From Patescibacteria group bacterium (GTDB taxonomy: Bacteria > Patescibacteriota > UBA1384 > JBAYJO01), in NCBI GenBank assembly GCA_041665085.1, contig JBAYJO010000002.1:83413-147412 (forward strand): 64,000 nucleotides of DNA, given 5' to 3'. Below are positions 779-63,015 of this stretch, piece after piece. Made by a program: the position numbers and the translations under genes. Below the pieces are notes generated by a model that saw only the letters and a list, made by a program, of their open reading frames with translations, was not told where the DNA came from and did no database searches. Each line of letters starts with the position of its first letter. Position 1 is the stretch's first letter.

Positions 779-2134
779 ATGAAAAAATTAATTTATTCAG
801 GTTTAGCACTAGTAGCGATTATAGGATCGGGTTTACTACTTAGCGGATGCGGATCGACAACTACAACCACGACTCAAACTCCGACTATTTCAATGACAAG
901 ACCAACTGGAGATGAAGATTTTTTTAAAGGAGTTATCGCTGGTTTTAAAGAAAGTAATAGTAGTGCCACTATAAATTACAAAGAAGTTCCATTTGAAGAC
1001 TACGAACTTAACACTCTTAACACGCTGGCTGCTCAAACCGGTCCTGATATTTGGACAATTAGAAATGACTGGGTAAGCAAGCATTACGATAAATTATTGC
1101 CAATACCTGATTCTTTTTTCAAGGTTGATAAAAATGACAAATCAACAGCGGTAGATTATTTTAAGGCAAATTTCGGTGAAAATGTTGCGAATGATGTAAT
1201 TGTAAATAATAAAGTTTATGGCATCCCGCTGGCAATGGACACAATGGTAATTTATTACAACTCAAAGTTAATCAATGAAGCGATTGATGCTTACAATACG
1301 GTTGCCGATGAAAATAAAACTGAAGGAATTGATGGTATTCCTCAAACTTGGGATAGTTTTTTAAATTTTGTACCATACGCAACAAAAAGAGACGGCAGTA
1401 ATATTACCCAAGCCGGTATTGCAATGGGAACGGCAAATAATGTCAATCGAGCAACTGATATTTTATATCTTTTAATGCTTCAAAATGGCGCTCAAATGGT
1501 TTCGCCGGACAATCTAACAGCAACATTTAATTTAGACACAAAAACATCAGCTGGCGGATCAGCCAACCCCGGTCTTTCGGCGCTTGATTTTTATACCAGC
1601 TTTAGCAATAGTTCAAAACCAAATTATTCATGGAATAGCTCAATGCCGGATTCAATCCAGGCATTTGTTGACGGTAAGGTAGCGATGATTTTTGGATATG
1701 GTTATATGGCAAACACAATCAAACAGCTAGCTCCGGATCTTAACTACAAAACTGCAAAAGTACCGCAAATTTCAAAAACAGCAGAGCCGGTTAATTTTGC
1801 CAGCTACTGGGTAGAAACAGTTACCAAAAGCAGCAAAGGAAGTTCTCTGGTTTTTCAATTTTTAAAAAGCTATGCTAATAAAAATACAAGTGCTGATTAC
1901 GCAACCCTAAAAAACTCTTCTAATGCATACATGCAAAATTATGACAAAACAGACGAAAATCCAAAAAATTCTCAACCTGCCAATGTAAAAACATTTAACA
2001 AAGGCAAACAACCGGAAAAATTTGACTCATTAATTGTTGATATGATTTCAAATGCAACAAGTGGAACAAGCCACCAAAAAACACTTGATGAAACAGCAAC
2101 AAAAATTACAAATCTTTTAAGAGAAAAAGAATGA
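779..2134 (+). CDS. lipoprotein, extracellular solute-binding protein family (sugar ABC-type SBP-like)
   Basis: Signal peptide with lipobox LLLSGC, followed by a Thr-rich linker. The overall pattern is SBP_bac_1-like. No permease genes are adjacent. Confidence 0.5.
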   Translation: MKKLIYSGLALVAIIGSGLLLSGCGSTTTTTTQTPTISMTRPTGDEDFFKGVIAGFKESNSSATINYKEVPFEDYELNTLNTLAAQTGPDIWTIRNDWVSKHYDKLLPIPDSFFKVDKNDKSTAVDYFKANFGENVANDVIVNNKVYGIPLAMDTMVIYYNSKLINEAIDAYNTVADENKTEGIDGIPQTWDSFLNFVPYATKRDGSNITQAGIAMGTANNVNRATDILYLLMLQNGAQMVSPDNLTATFNLDTKTSAGGSANPGLSALDFYTSFSNSSKPNYSWNSSMPDSIQAFVDGKVAMIFGYGYMANTIKQLAPDLNYKTAKVPQISKTAEPVNFASYWVETVTKSSKGSSLVFQFLKSYANKNTSADYATLKNSSNAYMQNYDKTDENPKNSQPANVKTFNKGKQPEKFDSLIVDMISNATSGTSHQKTLDETATKITNLLREKE

Positions 2135-2409
2135 TTGGAAAAGTTTTTGCCGCCAATACAATTAATACCCAGTTCGGCAATGTTACAACTGTTCCGGAAT
2201 ACATTGCAGCTATTTACAGCTGGATACTTGGTTTTGGAGTAAGCATTGCAGTTGTCTGGATTATTGTTTCGGGATATATTTTAATGACCAGCCAAGGCAG
2301 TCCGGATGCAGTCAGCAATGCCAAAAAAAATATTATCGAGTCTTTGTCTGGTATTGCCCTTTTATTTTTAGCAAAATTAGTAATCGATAGCATATGGAAA
2401 CCATTTTAA
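2131..2409 (+). CDS. TrbC/VirB2-like T4SS pilin family protein (paralog 1 of 6)
   Basis: ATGA overlap with the upstream stop. Two hydrophobic helices are separated by a conserved loop G-S-P-D...AKK. The second helix starts with I..SLSGI, like its paralogs. Confidence 0.5.
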   Translation: MIGKVFAANTINTQFGNVTTVPEYIAAIYSWILGFGVSIAVVWIIVSGYILMTSQGSPDAVSNAKKNIIESLSGIALLFLAKLVIDSIWKPF

Positions 2410-2729
2410 ATTTTATAAAACTTAGTATTCCCCGAGCAATGGCCAGCGCTGCAACTGAAATTAACATTTCTTCTCCCGGCAAATGGACCACGGCTGAAGC
2501 ACTTATAAATGATATTTTTAGATATTTCACTCTGATCGCGGCATCAACATGTTTTATAATATTTGCAATCGGCGGGCTGCATTACATCTACAGCACAGGG
2601 AGTCCAGATCAAGTAAATAAAGCAAAAGATACAATGATCTGGTCAGCAATCGGATTTTTCGTTTTTGTTGCCGGATACGCAATTGTAAGATTAGTAGGAG
2701 GGTGGTTCGGATATGACAAAATTTTTTAA
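2394..2729 (+). CDS. TrbC/VirB2-like T4SS pilin family protein (paralog 2)
   Basis: Motif TGSPDQVNKAKDTMIWSAIGF lies between two TM helices. It overlaps its neighbours by 16-17 nt. Confidence 0.55.
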   Translation: METILNFIKLSIPRAMASAATEINISSPGKWTTAEALINDIFRYFTLIAASTCFIIFAIGGLHYIYSTGSPDQVNKAKDTMIWSAIGFFVFVAGYAIVRLVGGWFGYDKIF

Positions 2730-3048
2730 AAAAATAGTAAATAAAATTAATCCTAGAAATGTTTTGTATGCCTTGATTATTCCGGAAAGCTGGAAAACCA
2801 GTGCACCGATTAATCTTAGCGATTTAAATGATTTTGTTTCCGGCACAATTGTCGGCCTGGCTTTAAATTTAGCTGGCTTTGTAGCATTATTTTTTGTTTT
2901 TTTAGGTGGGTATATGTGGATAACTTCAAGCGGAGACACCGGAAAAATCGAACAGGGCAAAAAAACTTTAATTTACGCGCTAGCCGGTTTTGTTTTGGTT
3001 CTTGTTTCAGGTTCGCTTGTTAAAATTGTGGTTAATTTATTAACATAA
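2713..3048 (+). CDS. TrbC/VirB2-like T4SS pilin family protein (paralog 3)
   Basis: Motif SSGDTGKIEQGKKTLIYALAGF lies between two TM helices. Confidence 0.55.
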   Translation: MTKFFKKIVNKINPRNVLYALIIPESWKTSAPINLSDLNDFVSGTIVGLALNLAGFVALFFVFLGGYMWITSSGDTGKIEQGKKTLIYALAGFVLVLVSGSLVKIVVNLLT

Positions 3049-3122
3049 CTTTAAAAAAACTGTAAAATAATAATATAGATTGAAAAAAATAAAGGGTCGA
3101 TGAAAATTAAGAAAGGAGAGAT

Positions 3123-3518
3123 ATGAAATTAAGCAAACCGATAAAAATATTATTGACTGTATTGCCACTAATGATTGCTGCTTTAGTAATGTTCACACCT
3201 GTTGGATCATTGGCAGCTATAAGCGAACCTTATAAAGATACGACAAAATTAAATAACGTTGAAAACATTATCAGTTTTATATTAAAAGTTGTGATCACTA
3301 TTGCTGCGGTTGTGGTTTTTGTATTATTTGCTGTTGCCGGCATCACATATGTAACTGGTGCTGGTAATGAAGAACAAACCGGAAAAGCCAAGAAGATGAT
3401 GATTGATGCAGCAATTGGACTTGCAATTACGGTAGCCGCTTATGCACTAGGTAAATACGTTATTGTTCTTATTGTTGGAAAAGACGCAACAAGTAGCATT
3501 TCTAGTGTGACTTTCTAA
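3123..3518 (+). CDS. TrbC/VirB2-like T4SS pilin family protein (paralog 4)
   Basis: SD aaaggagag precedes the ATG. Signal peptide (..GSLAA), then a TM helix, loop GAGNEEQTGKAKKMMIDAAIGL, and a second TM helix. Confidence 0.6.
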   Translation: MKLSKPIKILLTVLPLMIAALVMFTPVGSLAAISEPYKDTTKLNNVENIISFILKVVITIAAVVVFVLFAVAGITYVTGAGNEEQTGKAKKMMIDAAIGLAITVAAYALGKYVIVLIVGKDATSSISSVTF

Positions 3519-3534
3519 AAACAGAGAAAAATAA

Positions 3535-3906
3535 ATGGAAGCCATTTTAAAGATTATTTTGAAATTCAGTGATATTTCTAAAGCTTTTGCTTATGATTTG
3601 AGCAATAACCCGGTTTTAAACACGGTGAATGGTTATGCCACAAATACTCCGAGCTCAATTACAGAATATATAAACAAAGCTTTAGAGATTATCATGATTA
3701 TTGGAACAACAGGTGTCTTTATTATGGCTTCCGTTGGCGCTTTTATCTTTTTAAATAGTGCGGGAGATCCTGAAGTTGCTAAAAAAGGTCAAAACACGAT
3801 GATAAATGCCGGCATAGGATTTGCTTTGCTTGTTGCAACATATGCAATCGTAGTTTGGTATCTGAAAATCACAACCGGCGCCAGTACAATTAATATTAAT
3901 ATTTAG
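3535..3906 (+). CDS. TrbC/VirB2-like T4SS pilin family protein (paralog 5)
   Basis: N-terminus MEAIL.. resembles paralog 2 (METIL..). Motif SAGDPEVAKKGQNTMINAGIGF lies between two TM helices. Confidence 0.55.
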   Translation: MEAILKIILKFSDISKAFAYDLSNNPVLNTVNGYATNTPSSITEYINKALEIIMIIGTTGVFIMASVGAFIFLNSAGDPEVAKKGQNTMINAGIGFALLVATYAIVVWYLKITTGASTININI

Positions 3907-4250
3907 TTGCTGTCATCGCGAAGCGTCCGCGCTGTGGCGATCTACATCCTGTCATCGCGAGGTCATCCGCGGCGATCTATGAAAAGATTGCGGAGCCTGT
4001 CCCGAAGTATTGAGGGATCTCGACTTCTCGTAATGACAAAGTAGAATACATTCGCAATGACAGATGGATCTGACTCCTCGAACGACAGTATTTTATCATT
4101 CCAGACTCGATCCAATATATTCCACCTTGTCATTCCAGACTGAAAGCGAAGCGCTTCAGATCTGGAATCCAGTACTATTTGATTATTATTTACTCTGGAT
4201 CCCAGCCTGCGCTGGGATGACAAAATGAAAAAGCTGGAATGACGGAGAAA
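3907..4250. repeat. Composite array of GC-rich hairpin repeats (GTCATYCCAG..CTGGRATGAC family and the 'tcatcgcgaggtcatccgcggcgatcta' subfamily)
   Basis: Multiple hairpins: 3912-3945, 3951-3980, 4128-4173 (ATTCCAGA..TCTGGAAT with a nested stem) and 4193-4221 (ATCCCAGC-ctgc-GCTGGGAT). The same units recur at 5611, 37217, 41237, 47614, 51217, 57198, 59836 and 62841. Confidence 0.7.
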
Positions 4251-4252
4251 AA

Positions 4253-4621
4253 ATGATGAAAATTTTAAAAAAAATTATTTTGCCAATTTACTCAATTATT
4301 TTTTTGTTTGCATTATTTATTCCAAATACTTCTCATGCATTAATCAAACTTCAAGATCCGATTAAAAATGCTTTCGGCTCATCAAAAGTACATACAACAG
4401 ATGATGCCATAAACATGGTTCTTTCGATTCTATTTTATTTGGGGGCAATTTCTGTTTTTATATATGGAGCGATCGGTGGTATAATGTATTTTTTTGCAGT
4501 TGGAAACCAAGATCAAGCCAAAAAAGCGCAGGCAATGATTTATTACGCAGCAATCGGTTTTGTAATGTTGGTATCTGCTTATGCTCTTGCCGAATGGGCA
4601 ATTAATTATGTGCTAAGTTAA
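4253..4621 (+). CDS. TrbC/VirB2-like T4SS pilin family protein (paralog 6)
   Basis: Signal peptide, then a TM helix, loop VGNQDQAKKAQAMIYYAAIGF, and a second TM helix. Confidence 0.55.
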   Translation: MMKILKKIILPIYSIIFLFALFIPNTSHALIKLQDPIKNAFGSSKVHTTDDAINMVLSILFYLGAISVFIYGAIGGIMYFFAVGNQDQAKKAQAMIYYAAIGFVMLVSAYALAEWAINYVLS

Positions 4622-4688: not shown

Positions 4689-6482
4689 CTATTCAGCGAC
4701 ATCTTTGATGGGGATAAAGATCATCCCCGCCGCCACATCTGTGGCGGTGCCCGACCAGTAAGCGTACTTACCGATCGGGTAGTTCTGCCCGCCAATCTCG
4801 GGGCTTACCCCATATTGACTGGCGACAGTTGCGTTCTGGTTGAATGCAACCACCTTAACCCGACCGATCAAGCGGCCTAAACTGCCACTCTCAAGGGACG
4901 AGTCTCTATTTGAGTAGACAGCCAGAACCTGCCCGATCTGGGCATTTCGTACTCCACGAAGGAGGACGAAACTGTCGGTTTTGGCCGCTACCGGCACCTG
5001 TTTGGGCAGTCTGCTGTAGGCCTTCTTCAGGCCATCGGCAGCACTGGCCGCCCAGAATCGCCAAGCCTTATCTGTGGTGACCTGTTCGAAGTCACCGCCA
5101 GTGCCAATCGACACCTCGACACCGGGGATGCGCACATTGGTCTCCGATCCGGAGACAACCTCTTCACTGTACCCAGTAGCGCTTACTGGCTCAACCGCCA
5201 GTTCGCGATAACTGGTTGCGGAAACTGTACCCGTCACGCGGGCATAGAATTTCCGCACTCTGCGCGAGCCAGCGGTTTCGATCCTCTCAATACCACCAGC
5301 TATGCCGGATTCGGAATAGCCATCAACACACGATGCATTGACGGTTATTTCGCCGGTGGCGCCGAAGTACTTATCGTATTCCGGACGAGTGGCAGGATCA
5401 ACACCTTCGAGCTCTTGCTCGGCTCTGGCACGATCATATCGCTCATCGCGAGCAACGATCGTTATGCCCGAGCCTTTGAGCCCGTCATTGATCCAACCAG
5501 CCAGCTCGGCTGCTCCGCCGGTGAACTCTCTTCCTTCCATCTGATTGATGACAAGCACCAACCTGACTTCGGGAATTGCGGGTTTCTGTAGGGCAGTTGC
5601 AGAATTGCTCTGGATCCCAGCCTGCGCTGGGATGACAGAAGGGTCGATTGAGACTGTCGGAGGTGCCGGAAGATTAATCTCCGGCGGATTCTCCGTCAGC
5701 CTTTTGTCAAGATGGCCAATCCGATCCACGAAACGTGGGTGATCGGCGGCGATTTCTCCAAGCTTAGAAATCTCGCCCTCGCTCTCACTCAACAGTTTTA
5801 ACGAGCGTGCCATCGCCTTCGGATCACGGCCAGTGACAGCAAGAGATTCAAGACCGAATTGATCGGCCTGAAGCTCCTGCGTTCGGCTATACTTTGCACT
5901 TCTTACCATACTAAGCACGCCGGCCGCAACCTGAATAGTCTGGTTGGCCTCGGTTCCTCCGAGGATAGTGGACAGAAGAACATTGGAAGCCAATGCATCT
6001 GACCACGCTTTCTTAGAGTCGCCGTTTTGGATGTGGCCACATTCGTGGCCAACAACACCGGCAACATCATCCTGCCACCCAAGCGGGTCTTTCGACTTAA
6101 AGAACTCAATCAACCCTTCGGTCACAAAGATGTGTCCGCCTTGCGTGCCTGGCACGCAAAAAGCGTTCAGCACAGCCTTGCTGGCCTCGTCCCTCTGGTC
6201 TACAACCAGAATTTTGGGAACATCGGCCATTTTCTTTGCTTGAGCAATCGACGAAACGACCGCGTCTAGCATCGGATCGGAATTGGTGCGGTATTCACTC
6301 CGCACCTTAAGTGCCATGTCATCGCCGGCTAGGGCGACATTCTTGGCAGTAGGGCGATTTACGATCGCAGTCAGAGCCCCATTTAGGATGGCTCTTTTCC
6401 ACGAGTCGCTGTCTGCGTTTGCCACAGAAGCAAAAACAGACATCACAACTACCAGAGCTACTAGCGAAACAAAGCGTTTCAT
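4689..6482 (-). CDS. Secreted M48-family zinc metallopeptidase (HExxH = HECGH) fused to a C-terminal CsgG/LpoB-like domain; GC-rich foreign gene
   Basis: Signal peptide MKRFVSLVALVVVMSVFASVANA. VVGHECGHIQNGD is an M48 signature. The C-terminal half (LVLVINQMEGREFTGGAAELAGWINDGL...IVARDERYDRARAEQELEG) resembles CsgG-like lipoprotein domains. GC is about 57% against about 33% in surrounding DNA. A strong SD (aggagagg) lies upstream. Hairpin repeat 5611-5637 sits in-frame at the domain junction. Confidence 0.6.
   Translation of the reverse strand: MKRFVSLVALVVVMSVFASVANADSDSWKRAILNGALTAIVNRPTAKNVALAGDDMALKVRSEYRTNSDPMLDAVVSSIAQAKKMADVPKILVVDQRDEASKAVLNAFCVPGTQGGHIFVTEGLIEFFKSKDPLGWQDDVAGVVGHECGHIQNGDSKKAWSDALASNVLLSTILGGTEANQTIQVAAGVLSMVRSAKYSRTQELQADQFGLESLAVTGRDPKAMARSLKLLSESEGEISKLGEIAADHPRFVDRIGHLDKRLTENPPEINLPAPPTVSIDPSVIPAQAGIQSNSATALQKPAIPEVRLVLVINQMEGREFTGGAAELAGWINDGLKGSGITIVARDERYDRARAEQELEGVDPATRPEYDKYFGATGEITVNASCVDGYSESGIAGGIERIETAGSRRVRKFYARVTGTVSATSYRELAVEPVSATGYSEEVVSGSETNVRIPGVEVSIGTGGDFEQVTTDKAWRFWAASAADGLKKAYSRLPKQVPVAAKTDSFVLLRGVRNAQIGQVLAVYSNRDSSLESGSLGRLIGRVKVVAFNQNATVASQYGVSPEIGGQNYPIGKYAYWSGTATDVAAGMIFIPIKDVAE
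5611..5637. repeat. Hairpin repeat copy (ATCCCAGC-ctgc-GCTGGGAT) embedded in-frame within the CDS
   Basis: Identical to the units at 4193-4221 and 37217-37245. It encodes VIPAQAGIQ in the linker between the M48 and CsgG-like domains. Confidence 0.7.
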
Positions 6483-9827: not shown

Positions 9828-9916
9828 TGGCGGAGAGGGTGGGATTCGGACCCACGATCCCTTGCGGGATACCGGTTTTCGAGACCAGCGCACTAGACCA
9901 ACTATGCGACCTCTCC
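9828..9916 (-). tRNA. tRNA-Ser (anticodon CGA) with long variable arm and encoded CCA
   Basis: Reverse complement is GGAGAGGTCGCATAGTTGGTCTAGTGCGCTGGTCTCGAAAACCGGTATCCCGCAAGGGATCGTGGGTCCGAATCCCACCCTCTCCGCCA. It has a 7-bp acceptor stem, anticodon loop CTCGAAA and a 16-nt variable arm. The T-loop reads TCCGAAT, so position 55 is C. Confidence 0.75.
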
Positions 9917-12056: not shown

Positions 12057-13421
12057 ATGGATTTGGAAAAAATTTGGAATACAGCACTGGGAGAACTTGA
12101 AGTTGTCCTGTCAAAGGCAAACTATATCACTTGGTTTAAAGACACTTTTATTGTCTCAAGTGAAGACGGAAAAATAGTGATTGGAGTTCCTAATGGATTT
12201 GCCGAAGAATGGCTAAGTAAAAAATTCCACCCTCAAATTTTTGATACTTTAAAAAAAACTATTTCCGATTTGAAAGAAATAGAATATAAAATTATCCCTA
12301 ATAAAAATCAATTCGAAGCCAAAACATCTGTTAGTATTGATCGAGATGAAATTGAAAATAAACGAACAAGCGTTTCAAATACTAAATCAACTGACAATAA
12401 TCTAAATCCAAAATATGTTTTTGAAAATTTTATCGTAAGCAACACCAACCGCCTTGCTCAAGCCAGTTCAATTGCAGTGGCCAATAACCCCGGCATGGTT
12501 TACAATCCACTCTTTATTTACGGAGGGGTAGGACTAGGGAAAACCCATCTTTTGCATGGGATCGGACACGAAATATTAAGAAAGTGGCCGGAAAAGAAAG
12601 TTGTTTATCTTTCCTGTGAAAAATTTACAAATGAATTTATCCACTCGATTTCCACAGGTAAAATTAATGAGTTTAAAAAGACTTATCGAAATGTTGATGT
12701 CCTGCTTGTTGATGATATTCAATTCCTTTCTAATAAAGAAGGTTTTCAAGAAGAATTTTTTCATACATTTAATTCCCTGCACCAGACTAATCGCCAGATA
12801 GTAATGACTGCTGATAGAATGCCAAAAGCCATTCCTGCTCTTGAGGAAAGATTATCTTCAAGATTTGGTTGGGGTTTAATTGCCGATATCCAATCTCCTA
12901 ATTTTGAAACTCGAATGGCCATCCTGCAAGCTAAGTGTAAAGAAAAAGGACACATTCTTGATGAAGAAGTTTTGAAATATATTGCACAAAATGTAAACTC
13001 AAATATCAGAGAACTTGAGGGTTGTTTGAACCGATTGATTACTTCTTCTGAACTGACTAATGTGGAAATTAATCTAAAAAACGCTGAAAGTATTTTAGCG
13101 GATTTTGTAAACAGCCCTTTAAATGCCAATATTTCAATTAATAAGGTATTTAAAATTATCAGTGATTATTATGAAATAAAAATCGAAGAAATTATGAGCG
13201 AAAAGAGAAATAAAGAATTAGTCAGGCCAAGACAAGTAATTATGTATATATTAAGAAATGAATTAAACTTATCTTATCCAAAAATTGCAAAAGAGTTGAA
13301 CGGTAAAGATCACACAACCATTATGTATGGAGTTTCAAAAATTAAAAAAGAATTAGCAAGAGACGAAACTTTGAAAAAAGACTTAGTTAATATAAAAGAA
13401 AAGCTTTACTCTATTGCCTAG
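12057..13421 (+). CDS. dnaA: Chromosomal replication initiator protein DnaA
   Basis: SD aggaggaag upstream. AAA+ Walker A GGVGLGKTHL and a C-terminal DNA-binding domain. Confidence 0.9.
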   Translation: MDLEKIWNTALGELEVVLSKANYITWFKDTFIVSSEDGKIVIGVPNGFAEEWLSKKFHPQIFDTLKKTISDLKEIEYKIIPNKNQFEAKTSVSIDRDEIENKRTSVSNTKSTDNNLNPKYVFENFIVSNTNRLAQASSIAVANNPGMVYNPLFIYGGVGLGKTHLLHGIGHEILRKWPEKKVVYLSCEKFTNEFIHSISTGKINEFKKTYRNVDVLLVDDIQFLSNKEGFQEEFFHTFNSLHQTNRQIVMTADRMPKAIPALEERLSSRFGWGLIADIQSPNFETRMAILQAKCKEKGHILDEEVLKYIAQNVNSNIRELEGCLNRLITSSELTNVEINLKNAESILADFVNSPLNANISINKVFKIISDYYEIKIEEIMSEKRNKELVRPRQVIMYILRNELNLSYPKIAKELNGKDHTTIMYGVSKIKKELARDETLKKDLVNIKEKLYSIA

Positions 13422-37216: not shown

Positions 37217-37266
37217 CTCTGGATCCCAGCCTGCGCTGGGATGACAAAAGAAGTTGGGATGACAAC
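37217..37266. repeat. Hairpin repeat copy (ATCCCAGC-ctgc-GCTGGGAT plus partial second unit) between the two paralogous secreted-protein genes
   Basis: ctctggatcccagcctgcgctgggatgac is identical to 4193-4221 and 5609-5637. Confidence 0.7.
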
Positions 37267-39930: not shown

Positions 39931-40020
39931 AAGGGGCTAGGGGCTTCGAGTCTTGAAGCGCGCCCCTTTGCCCCTTACAAACCCCCACCCCCGCACGCCT
40001 GCCTGCCGGCGAGGCAGGCT
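39931..40020. repeat. GC-rich hairpin repeat cluster (AAGGGGC..GCCCCTT; GCCTGCC-tgccggcga-GGCAGGC)
   Basis: The core 'cctgcctgccggcgaggcaggc' is related to 'cctgcctggcggcaaggcaggc' at 41243 and 59852. Confidence 0.6.
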
Positions 40021-40048
40021 TTTCAAGGAGCGTCAATAATAATTTACT

Positions 40049-40098
40049 TTCTTGAAAAATCAAAACTCGCTAGGCTCAAACATTGATTTTTCAAGAAG
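40049..40098. promoter_or_regulatory. Perfect 15-bp inverted repeat (TTCTTGAAAAATCAA-N20-TTGATTTTTCAAGAA), candidate operator between divergent femAB-like and tsaD
   Basis: Perfect arms. A degenerate third half-site 'ccttgaaaaaatgaa' lies at 40117-40131. Confidence 0.45.
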
Positions 40099-40179
40099 CA
40101 TAAATTATTTTTTCCTTCCTTGAAAAAATGAATATTGGTTGAAATTTATGTCAAAAACAGGTATAATCTAATTACATTT

Positions 40180-41217
40180 ATGAAAATTTTAGCAATTGAA
40201 TCTAGTTGTGATGAAACTGCGGCCGCAGTTGTTGAAGAGAAAAATGGCAAAATTAATGTTTTGTCTAATTTGGTTTATTCACAAATTGAGATTCATCAAA
40301 AAACTCAAGGTGTTGTACCGGAAGTGGCTGCCAGAGCTCATATTGAAAAAATTTTACCTATAATTGATCAGGCTTTAATTAAAGCAAGTGAAACAAAAAA
40401 TAGTATAGATGCAATTGCAGTTACGTCCGGTCCGGGTCTTGTAGGCTCACTACTTGTTGGGGTTAGCACAGCAAAAGCACTTGCTTCTGTCTGGAAAAAA
40501 CCAATTTTTGGAGTAAATCATTTGGCCGGTCATTTGTACGCCTGTTTTATTGAGAATGATATAAAGTTGCCAGCCGTAGTTTTAACTGCTTCAGGTGGGC
40601 ATACTATGCTTATTTTGGTTGAAAAGATTGGCAAAATTAAAATTCTTGGTGAGACAATTGATGATGCAGCTGGCGAAGCTTTTGATAAGGTGGCGAAGCT
40701 TTTGGGTCTTGGTTATCCGGGTGGACCGGCAATTTCTAAATATGCCGATAAATTTTTGGGTAAAGAACAAAAAATTCATTTTCCGCGTCCACTTATGAAT
40801 TCCGGGGATTATAATTTTTCTTTTTCCGGTCTTAAAACTGCGGTTTTATATGCAATTAAAAAAGATTATCCCGAGATGAATAATTTAACAGATGAATATA
40901 AAGAAGAAGTTGCATATGCGTTTCAAGAAGCGGCTGTTGATGTACTTACTGAAAAAGCATTAAGAGCTGCCGGAGAATACAATGTGAAAACGATTTGTCT
41001 TTCCGGCGGAGTATCAGCCAACACAAGACTTAGAGAAAGAATGGGAGAAAAAGCAAAAGAATTTTCAAGCGATATTGAGGTAATTGTCCCGTCATTTAAA
41101 TATTGCACTGATAATGCGGCTATGATTGGTGCTGCAGCATTGCTTCAAAGAAATATAATCAAGCCAACCACGCATGAACATGTAAAAGCTGATCCAAATT
41201 TTGAGCTTGCAGAGTAG
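40180..41217 (+). CDS. tsaD: tRNA N6-adenosine threonylcarbamoyltransferase TsaD
   Basis: MKILAIESSCDETAAAVV plus conserved TsaD/Kae1 motifs. The start was moved to an internal ATG preceded by tataat (40163-40168). Confidence 0.85.
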   Translation: MKILAIESSCDETAAAVVEEKNGKINVLSNLVYSQIEIHQKTQGVVPEVAARAHIEKILPIIDQALIKASETKNSIDAIAVTSGPGLVGSLLVGVSTAKALASVWKKPIFGVNHLAGHLYACFIENDIKLPAVVLTASGGHTMLILVEKIGKIKILGETIDDAAGEAFDKVAKLLGLGYPGGPAISKYADKFLGKEQKIHFPRPLMNSGDYNFSFSGLKTAVLYAIKKDYPEMNNLTDEYKEEVAYAFQEAAVDVLTEKALRAAGEYNVKTICLSGGVSANTRLRERMGEKAKEFSSDIEVIVPSFKYCTDNAAMIGAAALLQRNIIKPTTHEHVKADPNFELAE

Positions 41218-41236: not shown

Positions 41237-41363
41237 CGTCATCCCAGACCTGCCTGGCGGCAAGGCAGGCTTGATCTGGGATCCATCTATCTAAATTTGT
41301 ATTATAAACTCTGGATTCCAGCTTTCCGCCTAGGCTCGGCGAGACTGGTCGCTGGAATGACAA
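41237..41363. repeat. Composite hairpin repeat (GTCATCCCAGAC..GATCTGGGAT and CTGGATTCCAGC..GCTGGAATGACA)
   Basis: The first unit is identical to 59836-59880. The loop of the second unit (tttccgcctaggctcggcgagactggtcgct) occurs reverse-complemented at 51251-51290. Confidence 0.75.
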
Positions 41364-41400
41364 GATTGAATTATTAATCTAAAAGATATAAAATTTACTT

Positions 41401-44858: not shown

Positions 44859-47596
44859 AGAAAAATAAACTATTAATTATTGACGGCAATGCCCTGCTTC
44901 ATCGCACTTTCCATGCTATACCGCCAATGATTACTCGAAGTGGTGAACATACCAATGCGGTTTATGGTTTTATAACTATATTTTTTAAGGCATTGTCAGA
45001 AATAAAGCCTGATCTTTGCGTAATTTGTTGGGATGAGGGAAAGAAAACTTTTAGACACAAAGAATATAAAGAATATAAAGCCACGCGAGTTAAACAAGCT
45101 GATGAACTCTATTCGCAGCTTAGTAGAACTCGCGAAATTATGGATTTAATGGATATTCCAAATTATTCCTCTCCTGATTTTGAAGCTGATGATCTTATTG
45201 CAACATTAACCGAGCAAGCTAAATTGAAAAATATTGAAACCATAATTTTAACCGGAGATTTGGATTCTCTGCAGCTGGTTGAAGATGATAAGGTTAAAAT
45301 TTACACAATGCGAAAAGGTATTTCAGATATTGTAATTTACAATGAGGCAGCGGTTAAGGAAAGATATGGTGGACTTGGACCGGAAAAGATGATTGAGTAT
45401 AAAGCTATGAGGGGCGATCCGTCTGATAATATTAAAGGACTTGCGGGAATTGGCGAAAAAACTGCTATTACTCTTTTGGCTGAATATGGCGATATTGAAA
45501 ATATTTATGAAAATCTTGATAAATTAGCTCCAAAAACCAGAGAAATATTTGCTCAAAATAAAGAAACCTTAGAGGAAAATAAATATCTTGTAACAATGGT
45601 TAAAGATGCACCGGTAACATTTGACGAAAAAAAATCTGAACTTCGTAAATTTGATCGAGAAAAAGTGGCAAAATTGTTTCAAGAACTTGAGTTTAAAACT
45701 TTGCTTTCTCGCCTGCCCTATTTTGAAACTAAAAATGCTGATCAAATCGGACTTTTTTCTGAAAAAAAAGAAAGCAGTGAGAATAAAGTTATTAATAAAA
45801 ATTATGAGTTAGTTGCAAATATTGATGATTTAGTTACAAAATTAGAAGCGCAAGATCTTATTTGTTTTGATACGGAAACCAATGATCTCTATGGTGAGCT
45901 TGTTGGGATATCCTTTGCTTTTAAAGAAGATTCAGCATTTTATGTCCCAACTCTTGAGCATAAACAGGAAATTTTAGATAAATTGAGACCGATTTTCAGC
46001 AGCAGCAAAATCAAAAAAGTGGGCCATAATTTGAAGTATGATTATAAGGTAATGAAGCAAGAAGGAGTTGAGGTTGAGTCTCTCTATTTTGATTCAATGA
46101 TTGCGTCTTATGTTTTGCATCCGCATTATAATTCTCATTCAATGGATAACCTTGCTTTTACTGAACTGGGATATGAAACTATGCCTCTTTCTGCTCTTTT
46201 TGATATGGGTGATGGCAAAAAGGCAAAAATTGGAGATATGAGAAAAGTTGATTTGGACTTAATTTCTCAATATTCTTGTGAGGACGCTGATATTACTTTA
46301 AGGTTGGTTAATAGATTTAATAAAGAATTAGATGAGCATCCAAAGCTAAAGAAGTTGTTTTTTGAGGTTGAAATGCCTCTTGTTAAAATACTTTCTGATA
46401 TTGAGCTTCAAGGAATTAAAATTGATGTTGATTTACTAAAGAAAATGAGCAAAGAAATGCACTTCGAGCTTGGAAAAATCGAATTGGATATTTATGATAT
46501 AGCCGGTCGAAAGTTCAATATTAATTCAACCCAGCAGCTTAAAGATGTGCTTTTTAATACTTTGTGTATCAATTCCAACCAGATGAAAAAAACAAAAACC
46601 GGTATTTCAACAGCTGCATCTGAACTTGAGAAATTACGAGGTCAGCATCCAATTATTGAGCAGATTTTTCGTTATCGCGAACTTTCAAAATTAACCAATA
46701 CTTATATTGATGCTTTACCGGAACTGGTTGATAAAAACGACAGAGTTCATACAAGTTTTAATCAGACTCTGACATCAACCGGAAGGTTTTCATCAAGCGA
46801 ACCAAATCTGCAAAATATTCCGATTAGAACTGATGAGGGAAAGAAAATTAGGTCGGCTTTTATTGCCGATAATGGTTATAAATTGATTTCTGCTGATTAT
46901 TCTCAAATTGAACTTCGGGTTGCTGCTGCCATGTCAGGAGATAAAGAAATGATTAAAGCGTTCAAATCAGGTAAAGATTTTCATGCCATTACAGCTTCAG
47001 AAGTACTGGATGTGCCCCTTGAAATGGTTGATCAAGAGATGCGTCGTAGGGCAAAAGCAATAAATTTTGGTATGATTTACGGTCAGTCCCCGCATGGATT
47101 ATCTGAAGCAACAGAGATGACGCATGAAGAAGCAAGAGATTATATTGATAAATATTTTGTTCATTTTCATGAACTTAAGAAATTTTTAGATAATTGCGTT
47201 GAAGAGGCGCATAAGAAGGGTTATACAGAAACTTTTTTAGGTAGAAGACGATATGTGCCGGAGATAAATTCAAGTATTTTTCCTATCAGAAGTGCAGCTG
47301 AAAGAGTGGCGCTTAATACTCCGCTTCAGGGAACAGCGGCTGATATTATTAAGATCGCAATGGTTAAATCTTATGACTTTATTTCAAATAATTCGGATTT
47401 TAAGGATGTGAAGTTATTGCTTACGGTTCATGATGAACTTGTTTTTGAATGTCCTGAATCTCGAGTAAAAAATTTTGTTCCTGAAATTAAGAGAATTATG
47501 GAAAATGCACTTGATCTGGGTGTTTCACTTGATGCAGAGGTGAAGGTTGGGCGTGATTGGGGGACGTTAGAGTCCATAAAGTTAGAAAGTTTATAA
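44855..47596 (+). CDS. polA: DNA polymerase I
   Basis: ATGA overlap with murE. 5'-3' exonuclease N-terminus, 3'-5' exonuclease domain, and polymerase motifs (DYSQIELR, TVHDELVFE). Confidence 0.9.
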   Translation: MKKNKLLIIDGNALLHRTFHAIPPMITRSGEHTNAVYGFITIFFKALSEIKPDLCVICWDEGKKTFRHKEYKEYKATRVKQADELYSQLSRTREIMDLMDIPNYSSPDFEADDLIATLTEQAKLKNIETIILTGDLDSLQLVEDDKVKIYTMRKGISDIVIYNEAAVKERYGGLGPEKMIEYKAMRGDPSDNIKGLAGIGEKTAITLLAEYGDIENIYENLDKLAPKTREIFAQNKETLEENKYLVTMVKDAPVTFDEKKSELRKFDREKVAKLFQELEFKTLLSRLPYFETKNADQIGLFSEKKESSENKVINKNYELVANIDDLVTKLEAQDLICFDTETNDLYGELVGISFAFKEDSAFYVPTLEHKQEILDKLRPIFSSSKIKKVGHNLKYDYKVMKQEGVEVESLYFDSMIASYVLHPHYNSHSMDNLAFTELGYETMPLSALFDMGDGKKAKIGDMRKVDLDLISQYSCEDADITLRLVNRFNKELDEHPKLKKLFFEVEMPLVKILSDIELQGIKIDVDLLKKMSKEMHFELGKIELDIYDIAGRKFNINSTQQLKDVLFNTLCINSNQMKKTKTGISTAASELEKLRGQHPIIEQIFRYRELSKLTNTYIDALPELVDKNDRVHTSFNQTLTSTGRFSSSEPNLQNIPIRTDEGKKIRSAFIADNGYKLISADYSQIELRVAAAMSGDKEMIKAFKSGKDFHAITASEVLDVPLEMVDQEMRRRAKAINFGMIYGQSPHGLSEATEMTHEEARDYIDKYFVHFHELKKFLDNCVEEAHKKGYTETFLGRRRYVPEINSSIFPIRSAAERVALNTPLQGTAADIIKIAMVKSYDFISNNSDFKDVKLLLTVHDELVFECPESRVKNFVPEIKRIMENALDLGVSLDAEVKVGRDWGTLESIKLESL

Positions 47597-47662
47597 AGTT
47601 TGTAAAGTTGATGACCAGATTTGTCATTCCAGACAGGAAGTGGAACGCTCCTGATCTGGAAT
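47574..47662. repeat. 9-mer 'ATAAAGT' periodic repeat array followed by a GTCATTCCAGAC..CTGGAATC hairpin
   Basis: ccATAAAGTtaGAAAGTttATAAAGTttGTAAAGTtgatgacc starts inside the last codons of polA. It is followed by the hairpin ATTCCAG-N22-CTGGAAT. Confidence 0.65.
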
Positions 47663-47740
47663 CTATATTATAATTTTATAATTTTTTTTATTTTCTGAAA
47701 AAGGTCAAAATAAATAATGTTTTAAATATGGAAAGGGCGG

Positions 47741-48528: not shown

Positions 48529-48610
48529 CCATAAAGTTTGTAAAGCGCCTCGTTGGCGCTCGCCGTAGAGGCGAGTTCATAAAGTGGAAAGTTTTTAGTT
48601 TAAGTTATGG
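48529..48610. repeat. 'ATAAAGT' 9-mer repeats flanking two small GC hairpins
   Basis: ccATAAAGTttGTAAAG-gcgcctcgttggcgc-tcgccgtagaggcgag-ttcATAAAGTggAAAGTtttTAGTTTAAGTTATGG. The ends are roughly inverted (ccataa...ttatgg). Confidence 0.5.
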
Positions 48611-51216: not shown

Positions 51217-51344
51217 TTTGTCATTCCAGACTCCTATTTCGTCATCCTAGCGACCAGTCTCGCCGAGCCTAGGCGGAAAGCTGGGATCCAGAGAGTTTGT
51301 TTGTTTTTTATACTTCTAGATTCCAGCCTGCGCTGGAATGACAC
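51217..51344. repeat. Composite hairpin repeat (reverse-orientation copy of the 41237-41363 element, plus ATTCCAGC-ctgc-GCTGGAAT)
   Basis: tttgtcattccagac..., then agcgaccagtctcgccgagcctaggcggaaagct (reverse complement of 41321-41354), then ttccagcctgcgctggaatgacacc. Confidence 0.75.
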
Positions 51345-57134: not shown

Positions 57135-57375
57135 AAGTTCATAAAGTCCGTAAAGTTTGTAAAGTCGAGAAAGACTATGTCTGCTAAATAATTTATATTA
57201 TCGCGAGGTCATCCGTGACGATCTATATGATAGATTGCTTTGTGAATACACTCGCAATGACCAAGAGATATTGTAGTTGTAAAGACAATCTATAAGTATC
57301 CCATTAATACTGGAAAATTTCTATATGTTCTTACTTTATAAACTTTTAACTTTATAAACTTTATAAACTCTTCTA
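57131..57375. mobile_element. MITE-like element: inverted arrays of 9-bp 'NTAAAGTNN' repeats flanking an about 150-bp core with a family hairpin
   Basis: Left array 57131-57176 (ttaAAAGTTcATAAAGTccGTAAAGTttGTAAAGTcgaGAAAGac). Right array 57332-57370 is the reverse complement (ACTTTATAA x4). Internal hairpin 57198-57225 (tcgcgaggtcatccgtgacgatcta) belongs to the 3951-3980 subfamily. Confidence 0.45.
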
Positions 57376-59835: not shown

Positions 59836-59924
59836 TGTCATCCCAGACCTGCCTGGCGGCAAGGCAGGCTTGATCTGGGATCCAGAAACTATCTACCTAG
59901 ATTCCAGTTTTCACTGGAATGACA
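59836..59924. repeat. Composite hairpin repeat (copy of the 41237 unit plus ATTCCAG-ttttca-CTGGAAT)
   Basis: tgtcatcccagacctgcctggcggcaaggcaggcttgatctgggatcc is identical to 41238-41285. Confidence 0.75.
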
Positions 59925-62840: not shown

Positions 62841-62917
62841 GTCATCCCAGTGCAGGTTGGGATCTAGCTTTTTAAAATAATAATGTAATTTATAGATTCC
62901 TGCTTTCGCGGGAATGA
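62841..62917. repeat. Hairpin repeat pair (ATCCCA-gtgcaggt-TGGGAT and ATTCC-tgctttcgcg-GGAATGAC)
   Basis: The family termini GTCATCCCAG.. and ..GGGAATGAC are present. Confidence 0.6.
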
Positions 62918-63015
62918 CTTGATAGTATGCAATTTGGCTATCAAATTGGGATGTTTTTGTGATATAAATAGTATGGTAATCAAATGATTAATAAGTATGG
63001 GGAAAAAGGAGAGAC

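Follow-up and report, generated by a model that had tools for sequence, protein, structure and literature searches.

What are the GC-rich palindromic repeats that recur between the genes of a Patescibacterium, and which enzyme, if any, do they belong to? We addressed this question in a 64,000-nt stretch of DNA (hereafter, the window) from contig JBAYJO010000002.1 of Patescibacteria group bacterium (GenBank assembly GCA_041665085.1, positions 83,413 to 147,412), which corresponds to positions 83431-147430 of the 150,157-bp ENA contig ERZ27249449:k141_130032. An earlier reading of these letters (the original prediction) had described a family of hairpins with conserved termini (GTCATYCCAG...CTGGRATGAC), resembling REP sequences or miniature inverted-repeat transposable elements (MITEs), that could not be assigned to any named family. 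We find that the family is real, widespread, expanded in this lineage and already named (NTS/SRM), while its host and several of its variant features are new. The window repeats are probably Ssn-related hairpins of the NTS/SRM family, present as non-autonomous copies that expanded recently in this lineage of Patescibacteria.

Most of the listed loci carry one family of polar hairpins

Within the window, 21 sites match GTCATYCCAG with at most one mismatch, versus 4.0 ± 2.0 in shuffled sequences, and none of 100 shuffles reached 21. A detector that is blind to this motif and looks for the layout 'GTC + AT-palindrome-AT + C' returned 16 sites, compared to a mean of 1.5 and a maximum of 7 in 100 dinucleotide shuffles. 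These counts bear out the existence of the palindromic family, but only eight of the 11 loci originally listed carry it (4095-4243, 5613, 37222, 41238, 47623, 51220, 59837 and 62841). Locus 57198 and the left half of 3907-4250 hold a second family instead, GTCATYGCGAG, and loci 695 and 39931 are GC-rich hairpins with the termini of neither family, 39931 sharing only a CCTGCC..GGCAGG hairpin.

The 13 full units of the first family align cleanly (alignment A2) and share the layout NNN-GTC-[ATYCCAGM]-loop-[KCTGGRAT]-C-YAG, i.e., a polar module with an 8-bp stem. No variation was seen among the 13 in the GTC (G4, T5 and C6 of the alignment), in the AT at either end of the stem or in the C just 3' of the palindrome (C27). 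The alignment supported the hairpin: the stem is 99% paired across the units, as opposed to 9-48% when the partner was slid by 1-3 columns as a control, and two of its pairs show compensatory changes (CG:6/UA:6 and CG:6/AU:4/UA:1). When folded as single-stranded DNA (ssDNA), most units adopt the 8-bp stem, which is either closed by a tetraloop or drawn out into a longer hairpin (dG between -6.6 and -13.7 kcal/mol, z between -3.4 and -5.5); weaker folds came from the two units with a 34-nt core and from the degenerate unit at 62895. In agreement with the GC-richness noted earlier, the units average 54% GC, versus 36% for the window.

Between these conserved termini the loops vary, as had been described. 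Short loops read C-GCAG-G or T-GAAA-A (a GNRA-like tetraloop); long loops, carried by six units, span 23-32 nt, extend the hairpin and are framed as 'AC...GAT' or 'CG...AG'. In two of the long-loop units, 41238 and 59837, an 'ACTTGAT'-type loop encloses a nested CCTGCCTGGCGGCAAGGCAGG (CCTGCC..GGCAGG) hairpin, the previously described cctgcctggcggcaaggcagg loop being located at two sites, 41249 and 59848. The 'ACTTGAT' subtype is found intact in Saccharibacteria and Dependentiae. The 34-nt core was located as well: it spans 41320-41353 and, as its reverse complement, 51249-51282, both copies forming part of a 58-nt repeat (41309-41366 and, inverted, 51236-51293; 91% identity). Its reported occurrence in both orientations holds with respect to the plus strand, but relative to the GTC-to-C polarity of its own unit the core has a single orientation.

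The hairpins correspond to Ssn-related motifs

In Neisseria, the dRS3 repeat belongs to a polar hairpin of 28 nt termed NTS, CGTCATTCCCGCGMAVGCGGGAATCYRG, and NTS-like 'Ssn-related motifs' (SRM) occur in many phyla, where they are spatially tied to SsnA, a 94-aa single-domain GIY-YIG protein (cd10448) (Chenal et al., Nat Commun 2025, PMC11893778). As established in that study for Neisseria and Wolbachia, SsnA binds the hairpin solely as forward-strand ssDNA and cleaves it a few nucleotides upstream; the C that follows the palindrome is most important for binding, and the three nucleotides that precede it, GTC, are most important for cleavage. SRM expansions are enriched in symbionts, with Rickettsia among the genomes that hold more than 300 SRMs (PMC11893778).

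The published SRM search string, HGTCWYN(0-2)YYVSBRHN(0-5)WNVSBRGN(0-2)RNCYNB, matches five of the 13 window units exactly. Moreover, the short window unit, GTCATYCCAGC-GMAV-GCTGGRATCCAG, lies one compensatory pair (CCCGC/GCGGG to CCAGC/GCTGG) away from the Neisseria NTS, CGTCATTCCCGC-GMAV-GCGGGAATCYRG. Since a known, named family (NTS/dRS3-SRM; PMC11893778) explains the repeats, the view that no name could be assigned, and the novelty claimed with it, do not stand. A literature search for palindromic or MITE repeats in Patescibacteria, and for the terminal sequence strings, yielded no relevant report beyond Chenal et al.

Related units flank small GIY-YIG genes in other genomes

In keeping with the original prediction, the family extends far beyond the window: a scan of 185,579 species genomes (GTDB) returned at least 120 stretches with units, 0.84 Mb in all, from many phyla. 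Among the matches listed, the unit-bearing taxa include Wolbachia, Sphingomonas, Lysobacterales, Methylococcales, Dehalococcoidia, Dependentiae, Saccharibacteria and Parcubacteria, as well as Uhr-, Buchanan-, Davies- and Peregrinibacteria. In this same set, the most frequent unit sequence is GTCATTCCAGCGAAAGCTGGAATCCAG, the loops are those of NTS (CGAAAG, CGAAGG, CGAACG and CGCAGG), Y-R covariation holds across phyla in 170 of 175 units (p = 3e-38), and paired units are convergent in 11 cases, divergent in three and tandem in two. Several exact copies of the 27-mer GTCATCCCAGCGCAGGCTGGGATCCAG were also seen in viral-class contigs (L021 and L023, IMG/VR UViG 3300020074_001175 and 3300020083_000121, and L014), which are either SRM-carrying phages or misclassified cellular contigs.

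A hidden Markov model (HMM) built from the GIY-YIG open reading frames (ORFs) that lie beside these motifs was applied to the 0.84 Mb of motif-selected loci. It identified 11 ssn-like ORFs, ten of them no more than 100 nt from a unit; the usual arrangement is unit(+)-gene-unit(-). The encoded proteins are ~95 aa long, with PF01541 as their sole Pfam match (7e-17). Two of the loci belong to the superphylum of the window organism. In Saccharibacteria (L089), the layout is unit(+)-ssn-unit(+, ACTTGAT loop)-23 nt-unit(-, CGAAGG loop)-11 nt-half unit, which, minus the gene, is the layout of window positions 4095-4243. In another member of the Patescibacteria (L175), a unit-flanked ssn-like gene directly follows polA, and it is there that the window has unit 47623. 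In light of these two unit-flanked cassettes, the window pairs are best read as gene-less cassette derivatives.

We propose that the window units are non-autonomous copies of the Ssn system, in which the single unit would be the elementary module and the five convergent pairs would represent the two flanks of a unit(+)-ssn-unit(-) cassette whose gene is missing. An Ssn enzyme, either encoded elsewhere in the genome or formerly present, would recognise these copies and drive their spread or loss, and it may also serve a cellular role, e.g., restriction of incoming ssDNA. The family has expanded recently in the lineage; its copies went chiefly between genes, and one entered the linker of a protein in frame.

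The REP- or MITE-like character attributed to the repeats fits their architecture (short hairpins, inverted pairs, intergenic, lineage-specific and strain-polymorphic), but not the partner that was envisaged with it. Pfam searches of ~80 ORFs, a GIY-YIG regular expression, the HMM and per-gene Pfam tables revealed no RAYT/Y1_Tnp (PF01797), transposase or GIY-YIG gene in the window, and the partner to be expected is a small GIY-YIG ssDNA nuclease, Ssn, rather than a RAYT/IS200-like enzyme.

Units were gained within the lineage

The nearest relative (L225; 69% PolA identity) is syntenic with the window over 22.7 kb and carries zero units of either family. At the junctions where the window has repeats, its intergenic gaps measure 82 nt versus 183 nt, 1 nt versus 221 nt and 26 nt versus 240 nt in the window. 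Given that the nearest relative is devoid of units at orthologous sites, the window units were gained recently. In line with this, a covariance model (R1) found 13 matches in the 64 kb of the window and five in 1.04 Mb of background (80 related Patescibacteria polA loci), a ~40-fold difference; the background loci derive from a PolA metagenome scan whose best match has 49% identity, too distant for presence/absence comparison. The best named PolA relatives are Candidatus Buchananbacteria and 'Patescibacteria group', at 47-50% identity, which places this uncultured, ultra-small bacterium in the Candidate Phyla Radiation.

A coding copy is polymorphic between near-identical strains

Every intergenic copy lies downstream of at least one gene end, as the original prediction had it; one copy, however, lies inside a gene. 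This full unit (5613-5636, minus strand; a match to both the SRM string and the covariance model) sits in frame within a 597-aa ORF (4689-6482, minus strand, ~55% GC) that encodes an M48 peptidase with a C-terminal domain. Together with the next CAG, the 27-nt unit GTC ATC CCA GCG CAG GCT GGG ATC CAG encodes the peptide VIPAQAGIQ.

A second strain (JGI 3300037810) differs from the window by 4 single-nucleotide polymorphisms (SNPs) in 8.6 kb, i.e., it is 99.95% identical, and its repeats are identical to those of the window at 3907-4250, 39931, 41238-41361, 51220-51342, 57198, 59836 and 62841. At the coding unit, however, 50 nt are missing from this strain (contig L228). The segment (5595-5644, minus strand) is bounded by a CCCT direct repeat, which leaves its register ambiguous over 5590-5644. 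Thus, polymorphism between strains, which had been put forward as something to look for, does occur, in the form of a unit-bearing segment that is present in one strain and absent from another. On the gene strand, the junction reads ATCGA-CCCT-[TCTGTCATCCCAGCGCAGGCTGGGATCCAGAGCAATTCTGCAACTG-CCCT]-ACAG in the window and ATCGG-CCCT-ACAG in the JGI strain. With the 50 nt, the ORF spans 597 aa; without them, the gene caller splits it into a 315-aa and a 283-aa ORF, which overlap.

When the C-terminal 301 aa served as the query of an exhaustive HMMER search, two homologues (587 and 610 aa) with the same domain fusion were recovered. Both lack exactly VIPAQAGIQ, and in the alignment their linker is of comparable length on either side of it. 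Among 1.84 billion representatives, the fusion is confined to two homologues (40-45% identity), and the domain stands alone in two others; a word-indexed homologue search gave six distant matches to the M48 protein and none to its C-terminal domain. The gene itself, in which the peptidase is fused to an uncharacterised 300-aa C-terminal domain, has 55% GC in a 36%-GC genome, and is probably a recent horizontal acquisition.

The most coherent history is that of an in-frame 27-nt insertion in the inter-domain linker, followed in the JGI strain by a 50-nt CCCT-CCCT deletion that broke the frame. Such a deletion could stem from hairpin-stimulated slippage or from break repair at the position, 3-7 nt 5' of GTC, where Ssn is predicted to cut. 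The presence of a SNP right at the junction (window 5644) hints at something other than a clean slip. In the alternative history, 45 nt were inserted, with duplication of a 5-nt target, into a gene whose frame was already shifted; this has the lesser but still a considerable share of the probability. We also considered that SRM units of ~27-45 nt are actively mobile in this lineage. The 50-nt difference would then be a fresh event, either an insertion (with duplication of a 4-5-nt target) or an excision set off by the nuclease, located where Ssn is predicted to cut. We hold this possibility tentatively and regard it as rather doubtful. If true, it would constitute the first natural evidence of Ssn/SRM as a mobile-element system, a GIY-YIG counterpart of REPIN/RAYT, and such a system could add the VIPAQAGIQ peptide to proteins and join genes or divide them.

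Arrangement of the units along the window

Ten of the 13 full units form five convergent pairs (GTCAT-> <-ATGAC) whose members lie 20-40 nt apart, separated by short, mostly AT-rich spacers. The first pair is part of the densest repeat nest and consists of a long-loop unit of the 'AC...GAT' subtype (4129-4169, plus; covariance model 36.7 bits; ssDNA fold -12.3 kcal/mol, z -5.5) and a short-loop unit (GTCATCCCAGCGCAGGCTGGGATC; 4198-4221, minus), the latter matching the SRM string (covariance model 49.8 bits; fold -8.5 kcal/mol, z -4.2). Upstream of this pair, a motif scan identified a decayed unit (ATCATTCCAGACTCGATCcaatatATTCCA; 4095-4124, plus), the intact counterpart of which in other genomes is GTCATCCCAGACTCGATCTGGGATCTAG.

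The second pair, detected by repeat finding and the covariance model, joins the nested-hairpin unit at 41238-41283 (plus; inner hairpin 41249-41269; also supported by folding) to a unit with the 34-nt core at 41314-41361 (minus). The third joins the other 34-nt-core unit, which has one G-T wobble in its stem (51241-51288, plus; repeat finding and covariance model), to a short-loop unit (51319-51342, minus; SRM string and covariance model). In the fourth, a unit that is 100% identical to 41238 over 48 nt (59837-59882, plus; nested hairpin 59848-59868; repeat finding and covariance model) faces a unit with the short loop TGAAAA (59900-59923, minus; SRM string, covariance model and fold). The fifth comprises a short-loop unit with one G-T wobble (62841-62864, plus; covariance model), the sole unit with a trailing T-run, and a unit with the canonical Neisseria-type stem (GTCATTCCCGCGAAAGCAGGAATC; 62895-62918, minus; covariance model 40.7 bits, and fold).

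Apart from the coding copy, the single units are a short-loop unit at 37222-37245 (minus; SRM string and covariance model) and a long-loop unit downstream of polA at 47623-47663 (plus; repeat finding, covariance model and fold). Half units, consisting of the 5' arm only, lie ~10 nt upstream of three full units: GTCATTCCAGC at 4233-4243 (minus; 11 nt upstream of 4198-4221 on the unit strand), GTCATCCCAAC at 37253-37263 (minus; upstream of 37222-37245) and a third at 51220-51234 (plus; upstream of 51241). This layout, GTCATYCCAR followed by a pyrimidine-rich spacer of ~7-20 nt and then by a full unit in the same orientation, recurs across phyla, in six of 146 units among the matches listed (L089, where it stands beside ssn, L078, L096, L112, L069 and L143), and could be the footprint of a copying mechanism or of a target-site preference. 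Short-read contigs from Logan end within the repeats (at window positions 4222, 41267, 41285, 51255 and 51278), as expected of multi-copy sequence.

Weighing the alternatives

Several points weigh against the proposal that the window units belong to an Ssn system. No ssn/GIY-YIG ORF of at least 40 aa was found in the window, in the 9.2 kb to its left or in the 2.7-4.5 kb to its right (HMM E <= 1; Pfam gene tables), which leaves a cognate enzyme of this genome putative. The SRM string misses eight of the 13 units, six because their 23-32-nt loops exceed its N(0-5), one because of a G-T wobble and one because of a CCCGC stem. Taken alone as ssDNA, two of the long units give poor folds (z -1.5 and -0.05). 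As Ssn cleavage specificity depends on the stem in Neisseria, recognition of CCAGC and CCAGA stems is an extrapolation. Finally, movement of the repeats by Ssn is a hypothesis even in the original study (PMC11893778).

The alternative that best survives is a serious variant of our own proposal, in which the window units are orphan or fossil SRMs: the nuclease was lost or never encoded, leaving inert, decaying hairpins that replication slippage across the palindrome now and then removes. The decayed or half units at 4095, 4233, 37253, 51220 and 57200 fit this scenario, as do the lack of an ssn gene in the ~76 kb inspected and the strain difference, which is best read as a 50-nt CCCT-CCCT deletion that breaks a conserved fused ORF. 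Precedent exists, 19% of genomes with more than 200 SRMs being without an ssn homologue (Chenal et al., PMC11893778). However, inspection covered only ~76 kb of a genome that probably measures 0.6-1.2 Mb, by our own estimate for Patescibacteria, and the nearest relative is without units at the same sites, placing their gain in the recent past. Recent copying is further indicated by the identity of the copies themselves, with no mismatch over 30 nt among three window units or over 48 nt between two long units. On balance, we consider the fossil scenario unlikely.

Far less probable is an explanation at the RNA level, according to which the units are intrinsic terminators or mRNA-stabilising 3' hairpins that were selected at gene ends. 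The position of all intergenic copies downstream of gene ends, the stability of the hairpins and the sense orientation of all three single units relative to the adjacent upstream or host gene would agree with such a role. Yet a T-run follows the stem in only one of the 13 units (62844-62863), and terminator-like sites are not enriched where units lie (17 versus 13.0 ± 3.3 at 36-56 kb and 4 versus 5.2 ± 2.0 at 56-64 kb); at 1-8 kb there are 16 such sites versus 8.4, none of which coincide with units. Termination would also leave the conserved flanks (GTC and C-YAG) unexplained, and the relative manages without units at the same junctions. When searched with Rfam at gathering thresholds, the window gave only tRNA-Ser, the repeats matching no RNA family. 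The units could nevertheless affect transcripts as a side effect, which would coexist with their being Ssn-related hairpins.

The convergent pairs might also be taken for classical MITEs, with GTCATYCCAG...CTGGRATGAC as the terminal inverted repeats of an 80-125-bp non-autonomous element that is moved by a DDE enzyme and makes a short target-site duplication. There are indeed five inverted pairs with AT-rich cores, and a CCCT direct repeat (4-5 nt) bounds the polymorphic segment; that segment, however, holds a single unit, and the ends of the five pairs are without evident direct repeats. Units occur and vary singly (5613, 37222 and 47623), and the sides of a pair are interchangeable, the 34-nt-core unit taking the right side in one pair (41314) and the left side in another (51241). 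An IS30-like ORF with a weak HTH_38 match does lie just past the contig end, but no GTCAT motif precedes it, neither the window nor its flanks yielded a transposase with matching ends, and the gene between such pairs in other genomes encodes a GIY-YIG nuclease rather than a DDE enzyme. We regard the MITE explanation as highly improbable. The IS30-like candidate is a 328-aa ORF on a strain contig (L231 9799-10785), ~2.7 kb past the window, and the ENA contig breaks off within this ORF.

REP/REPIN elements, with a RAYT (an IS200/IS605-like Y1 transposase) as their enzyme, likewise consist of short polar hairpins recognised as ssDNA, with inverted pairs and nests such as 3907-4250, but this identity is scarcely credible here, where Y1_Tnp/RAYT is absent from the window ORFs and flanking gene tables, the head is GTC rather than the GTAG-type head of REP sequences, and the flanked gene across phyla is GIY-YIG.

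Further repeat families and genomic context

The second family, GTCATYGCGAG...GCRATCTA(T/C), has a different stem; it shares the GTC / AT-palindrome-AT / C logic of the first family but fails the published SRM motif. In the window it occupies 3912-4061 and 57200-57261. By direct reading, the former comprises two plus-strand units, GTCATCGCGA...GCGATCTAC (3912-3945; fold z -1.5, weak) and GTCATCGCGAGG...GCGATCTAT (3951-3980; fold z -1.0), and two degenerate units in the opposite orientation (GTCATTACGAG... and GTCATTGCGAAT...; 4012-4061, minus). The latter is a convergent pair in which the plus unit (57200-57226) has lost its GTC and the minus unit (57230-57261) reads GTCATTGCGAG...GCAATCTAT (fold -4.3 kcal/mol, z -2.4). 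Beyond the window the family recurs at 12612-12770 and 13432-13462 of contig L230; it often forms convergent pairs and stands in tandem with first-family units. It also abounds in IMG/VR viral contigs, where it is extremely common, with at least 120 stretches. Among the matches listed in 1.04 Mb of these stretches, no GIY-YIG ORF lies beside it, a result that is uninformative because first-family viral loci are also without ssn.

A third family consists of a G-run/C-run hairpin, ACCCCC..CG, a CCTGCC(N)GCCGGC(N)GGCAGG hairpin and then a long AT-rich inverted repeat (I4, 44-nt arms). It was found at 39931-40126 of the window, at 13600-13790 of L230 (~1.6 kb past the window end), at 4263-4283 of L089 and at 3075 of L152. 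Its CCTGCC..GGCAGG hairpin stands alone at 39998 and beyond the window, is nested in units 41238 and 59837, and occurs in other Patescibacteria. In addition, an AT-rich 9-nt periodic repeat (ATAAAGTTTGTAAAG and variants) lies near gene ends and repeat units (47584-47607, 48531-48545, 57141-57164 and 57334-57368); its overall enrichment is not significant (14 versus 8.9 ± 2.9), and its exact copies cluster.

The genes around the repeats include six tandem T4SS-pilin (PF18895) genes at 2131-4621, with the densest repeat nest (3907-4250) between the fifth and the sixth; the window also carries a cluster resembling a type IV secretion system (T4SS). The origin region (11.2-15.8 kb) holds rpmH, rnpA, yidD, yidC and an R3H protein gene on the minus strand, followed by dnaA, dnaN and recF on the plus strand, and the cumulative GC skew climbs from ~12 kb; a tRNA-Ser(CGA) gene lies at 9828-9916. 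The TsaD ORF has its called start at 40180 and its mechanical ORF start, TTG, at 40135. In the left flank (L226 7741-8965, ~0.3-1.5 kb before the window), two PF05635 (23S rRNA intervening-sequence protein) genes bracket an HSP20 gene.

Comparison with known systems

These observations bring the Candidate Phyla Radiation within the range of the Ssn/SRM repeat-nuclease system, the characterisation of which dates only from 2025. Organisms of this radiation live on other cells and depend on DNA uptake, and a patescibacterial host therefore fits the enrichment of SRMs in symbionts. Beyond what was reported previously (PMC11893778), the window presents gene-less convergent pairs that resemble non-autonomous derivatives of ssn cassettes, long-loop variants with a second, nested hairpin, and a strain polymorphism and an in-frame coding copy through which SRM mobility becomes testable with population metagenomes. 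On the practical side, the units break short-read assemblies and yield spurious or chimeric ORF calls.

The likeness to NTS/SRM is the closest. It comprises the 5' GTC, the AT-ended palindrome with a C right after it, the GMAV-type loop, a unit of ~27-28 nt and strict polarity, as well as convergent units that flank small GIY-YIG genes, a cross-phylum spread and enrichment in symbionts. One window unit, 62895-62918, even bears the Neisseria stem ATTCCCGC, whereas the other window stems are ATYCCAGC or ATYCCAGA. The window also differs in that six of its 13 units carry 23-32-nt loop inserts (two of which are the separate CCTGCC..GGCAGG hairpin that occurs alone elsewhere), in that one copy is coding and ssn is not in the ~76 kb, and in its host, a Patescibacterium, this group being unmentioned in PMC11893778.

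Two further systems share individual traits. Rickettsia palindromic elements (RPEs), reportedly described by Ogata and colleagues in 2000 and 2002, are also palindromes in an AT-rich, reduced, host-associated genome and can lie in frame in coding genes; they measure ~100-150 bp, as opposed to the 27-nt unit and single coding copy found here, and we liken them by description only. In IS200/IS605 'peel and paste' transposition, a subterminal hairpin is recognised in ssDNA and cleaved a few nucleotides 5', by a TnpA (Y1) acting on defined left and right ends with no target duplication; nothing comparable is encoded here.

The best functional analogy is that of REP/REPIN/BIME elements and RAYT (Nunvar 2010, Ton-Hoang 2012, as cited in PMC11893778). 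The enzymes differ, HUH/Y1 versus GIY-YIG, as do the head motifs, and no RAYT was found in the window or its flanks. By analogy, both systems would nonetheless combine short polar ssDNA hairpins, inverted doublets and clusters with one domesticated nuclease gene flanked by its own repeats.

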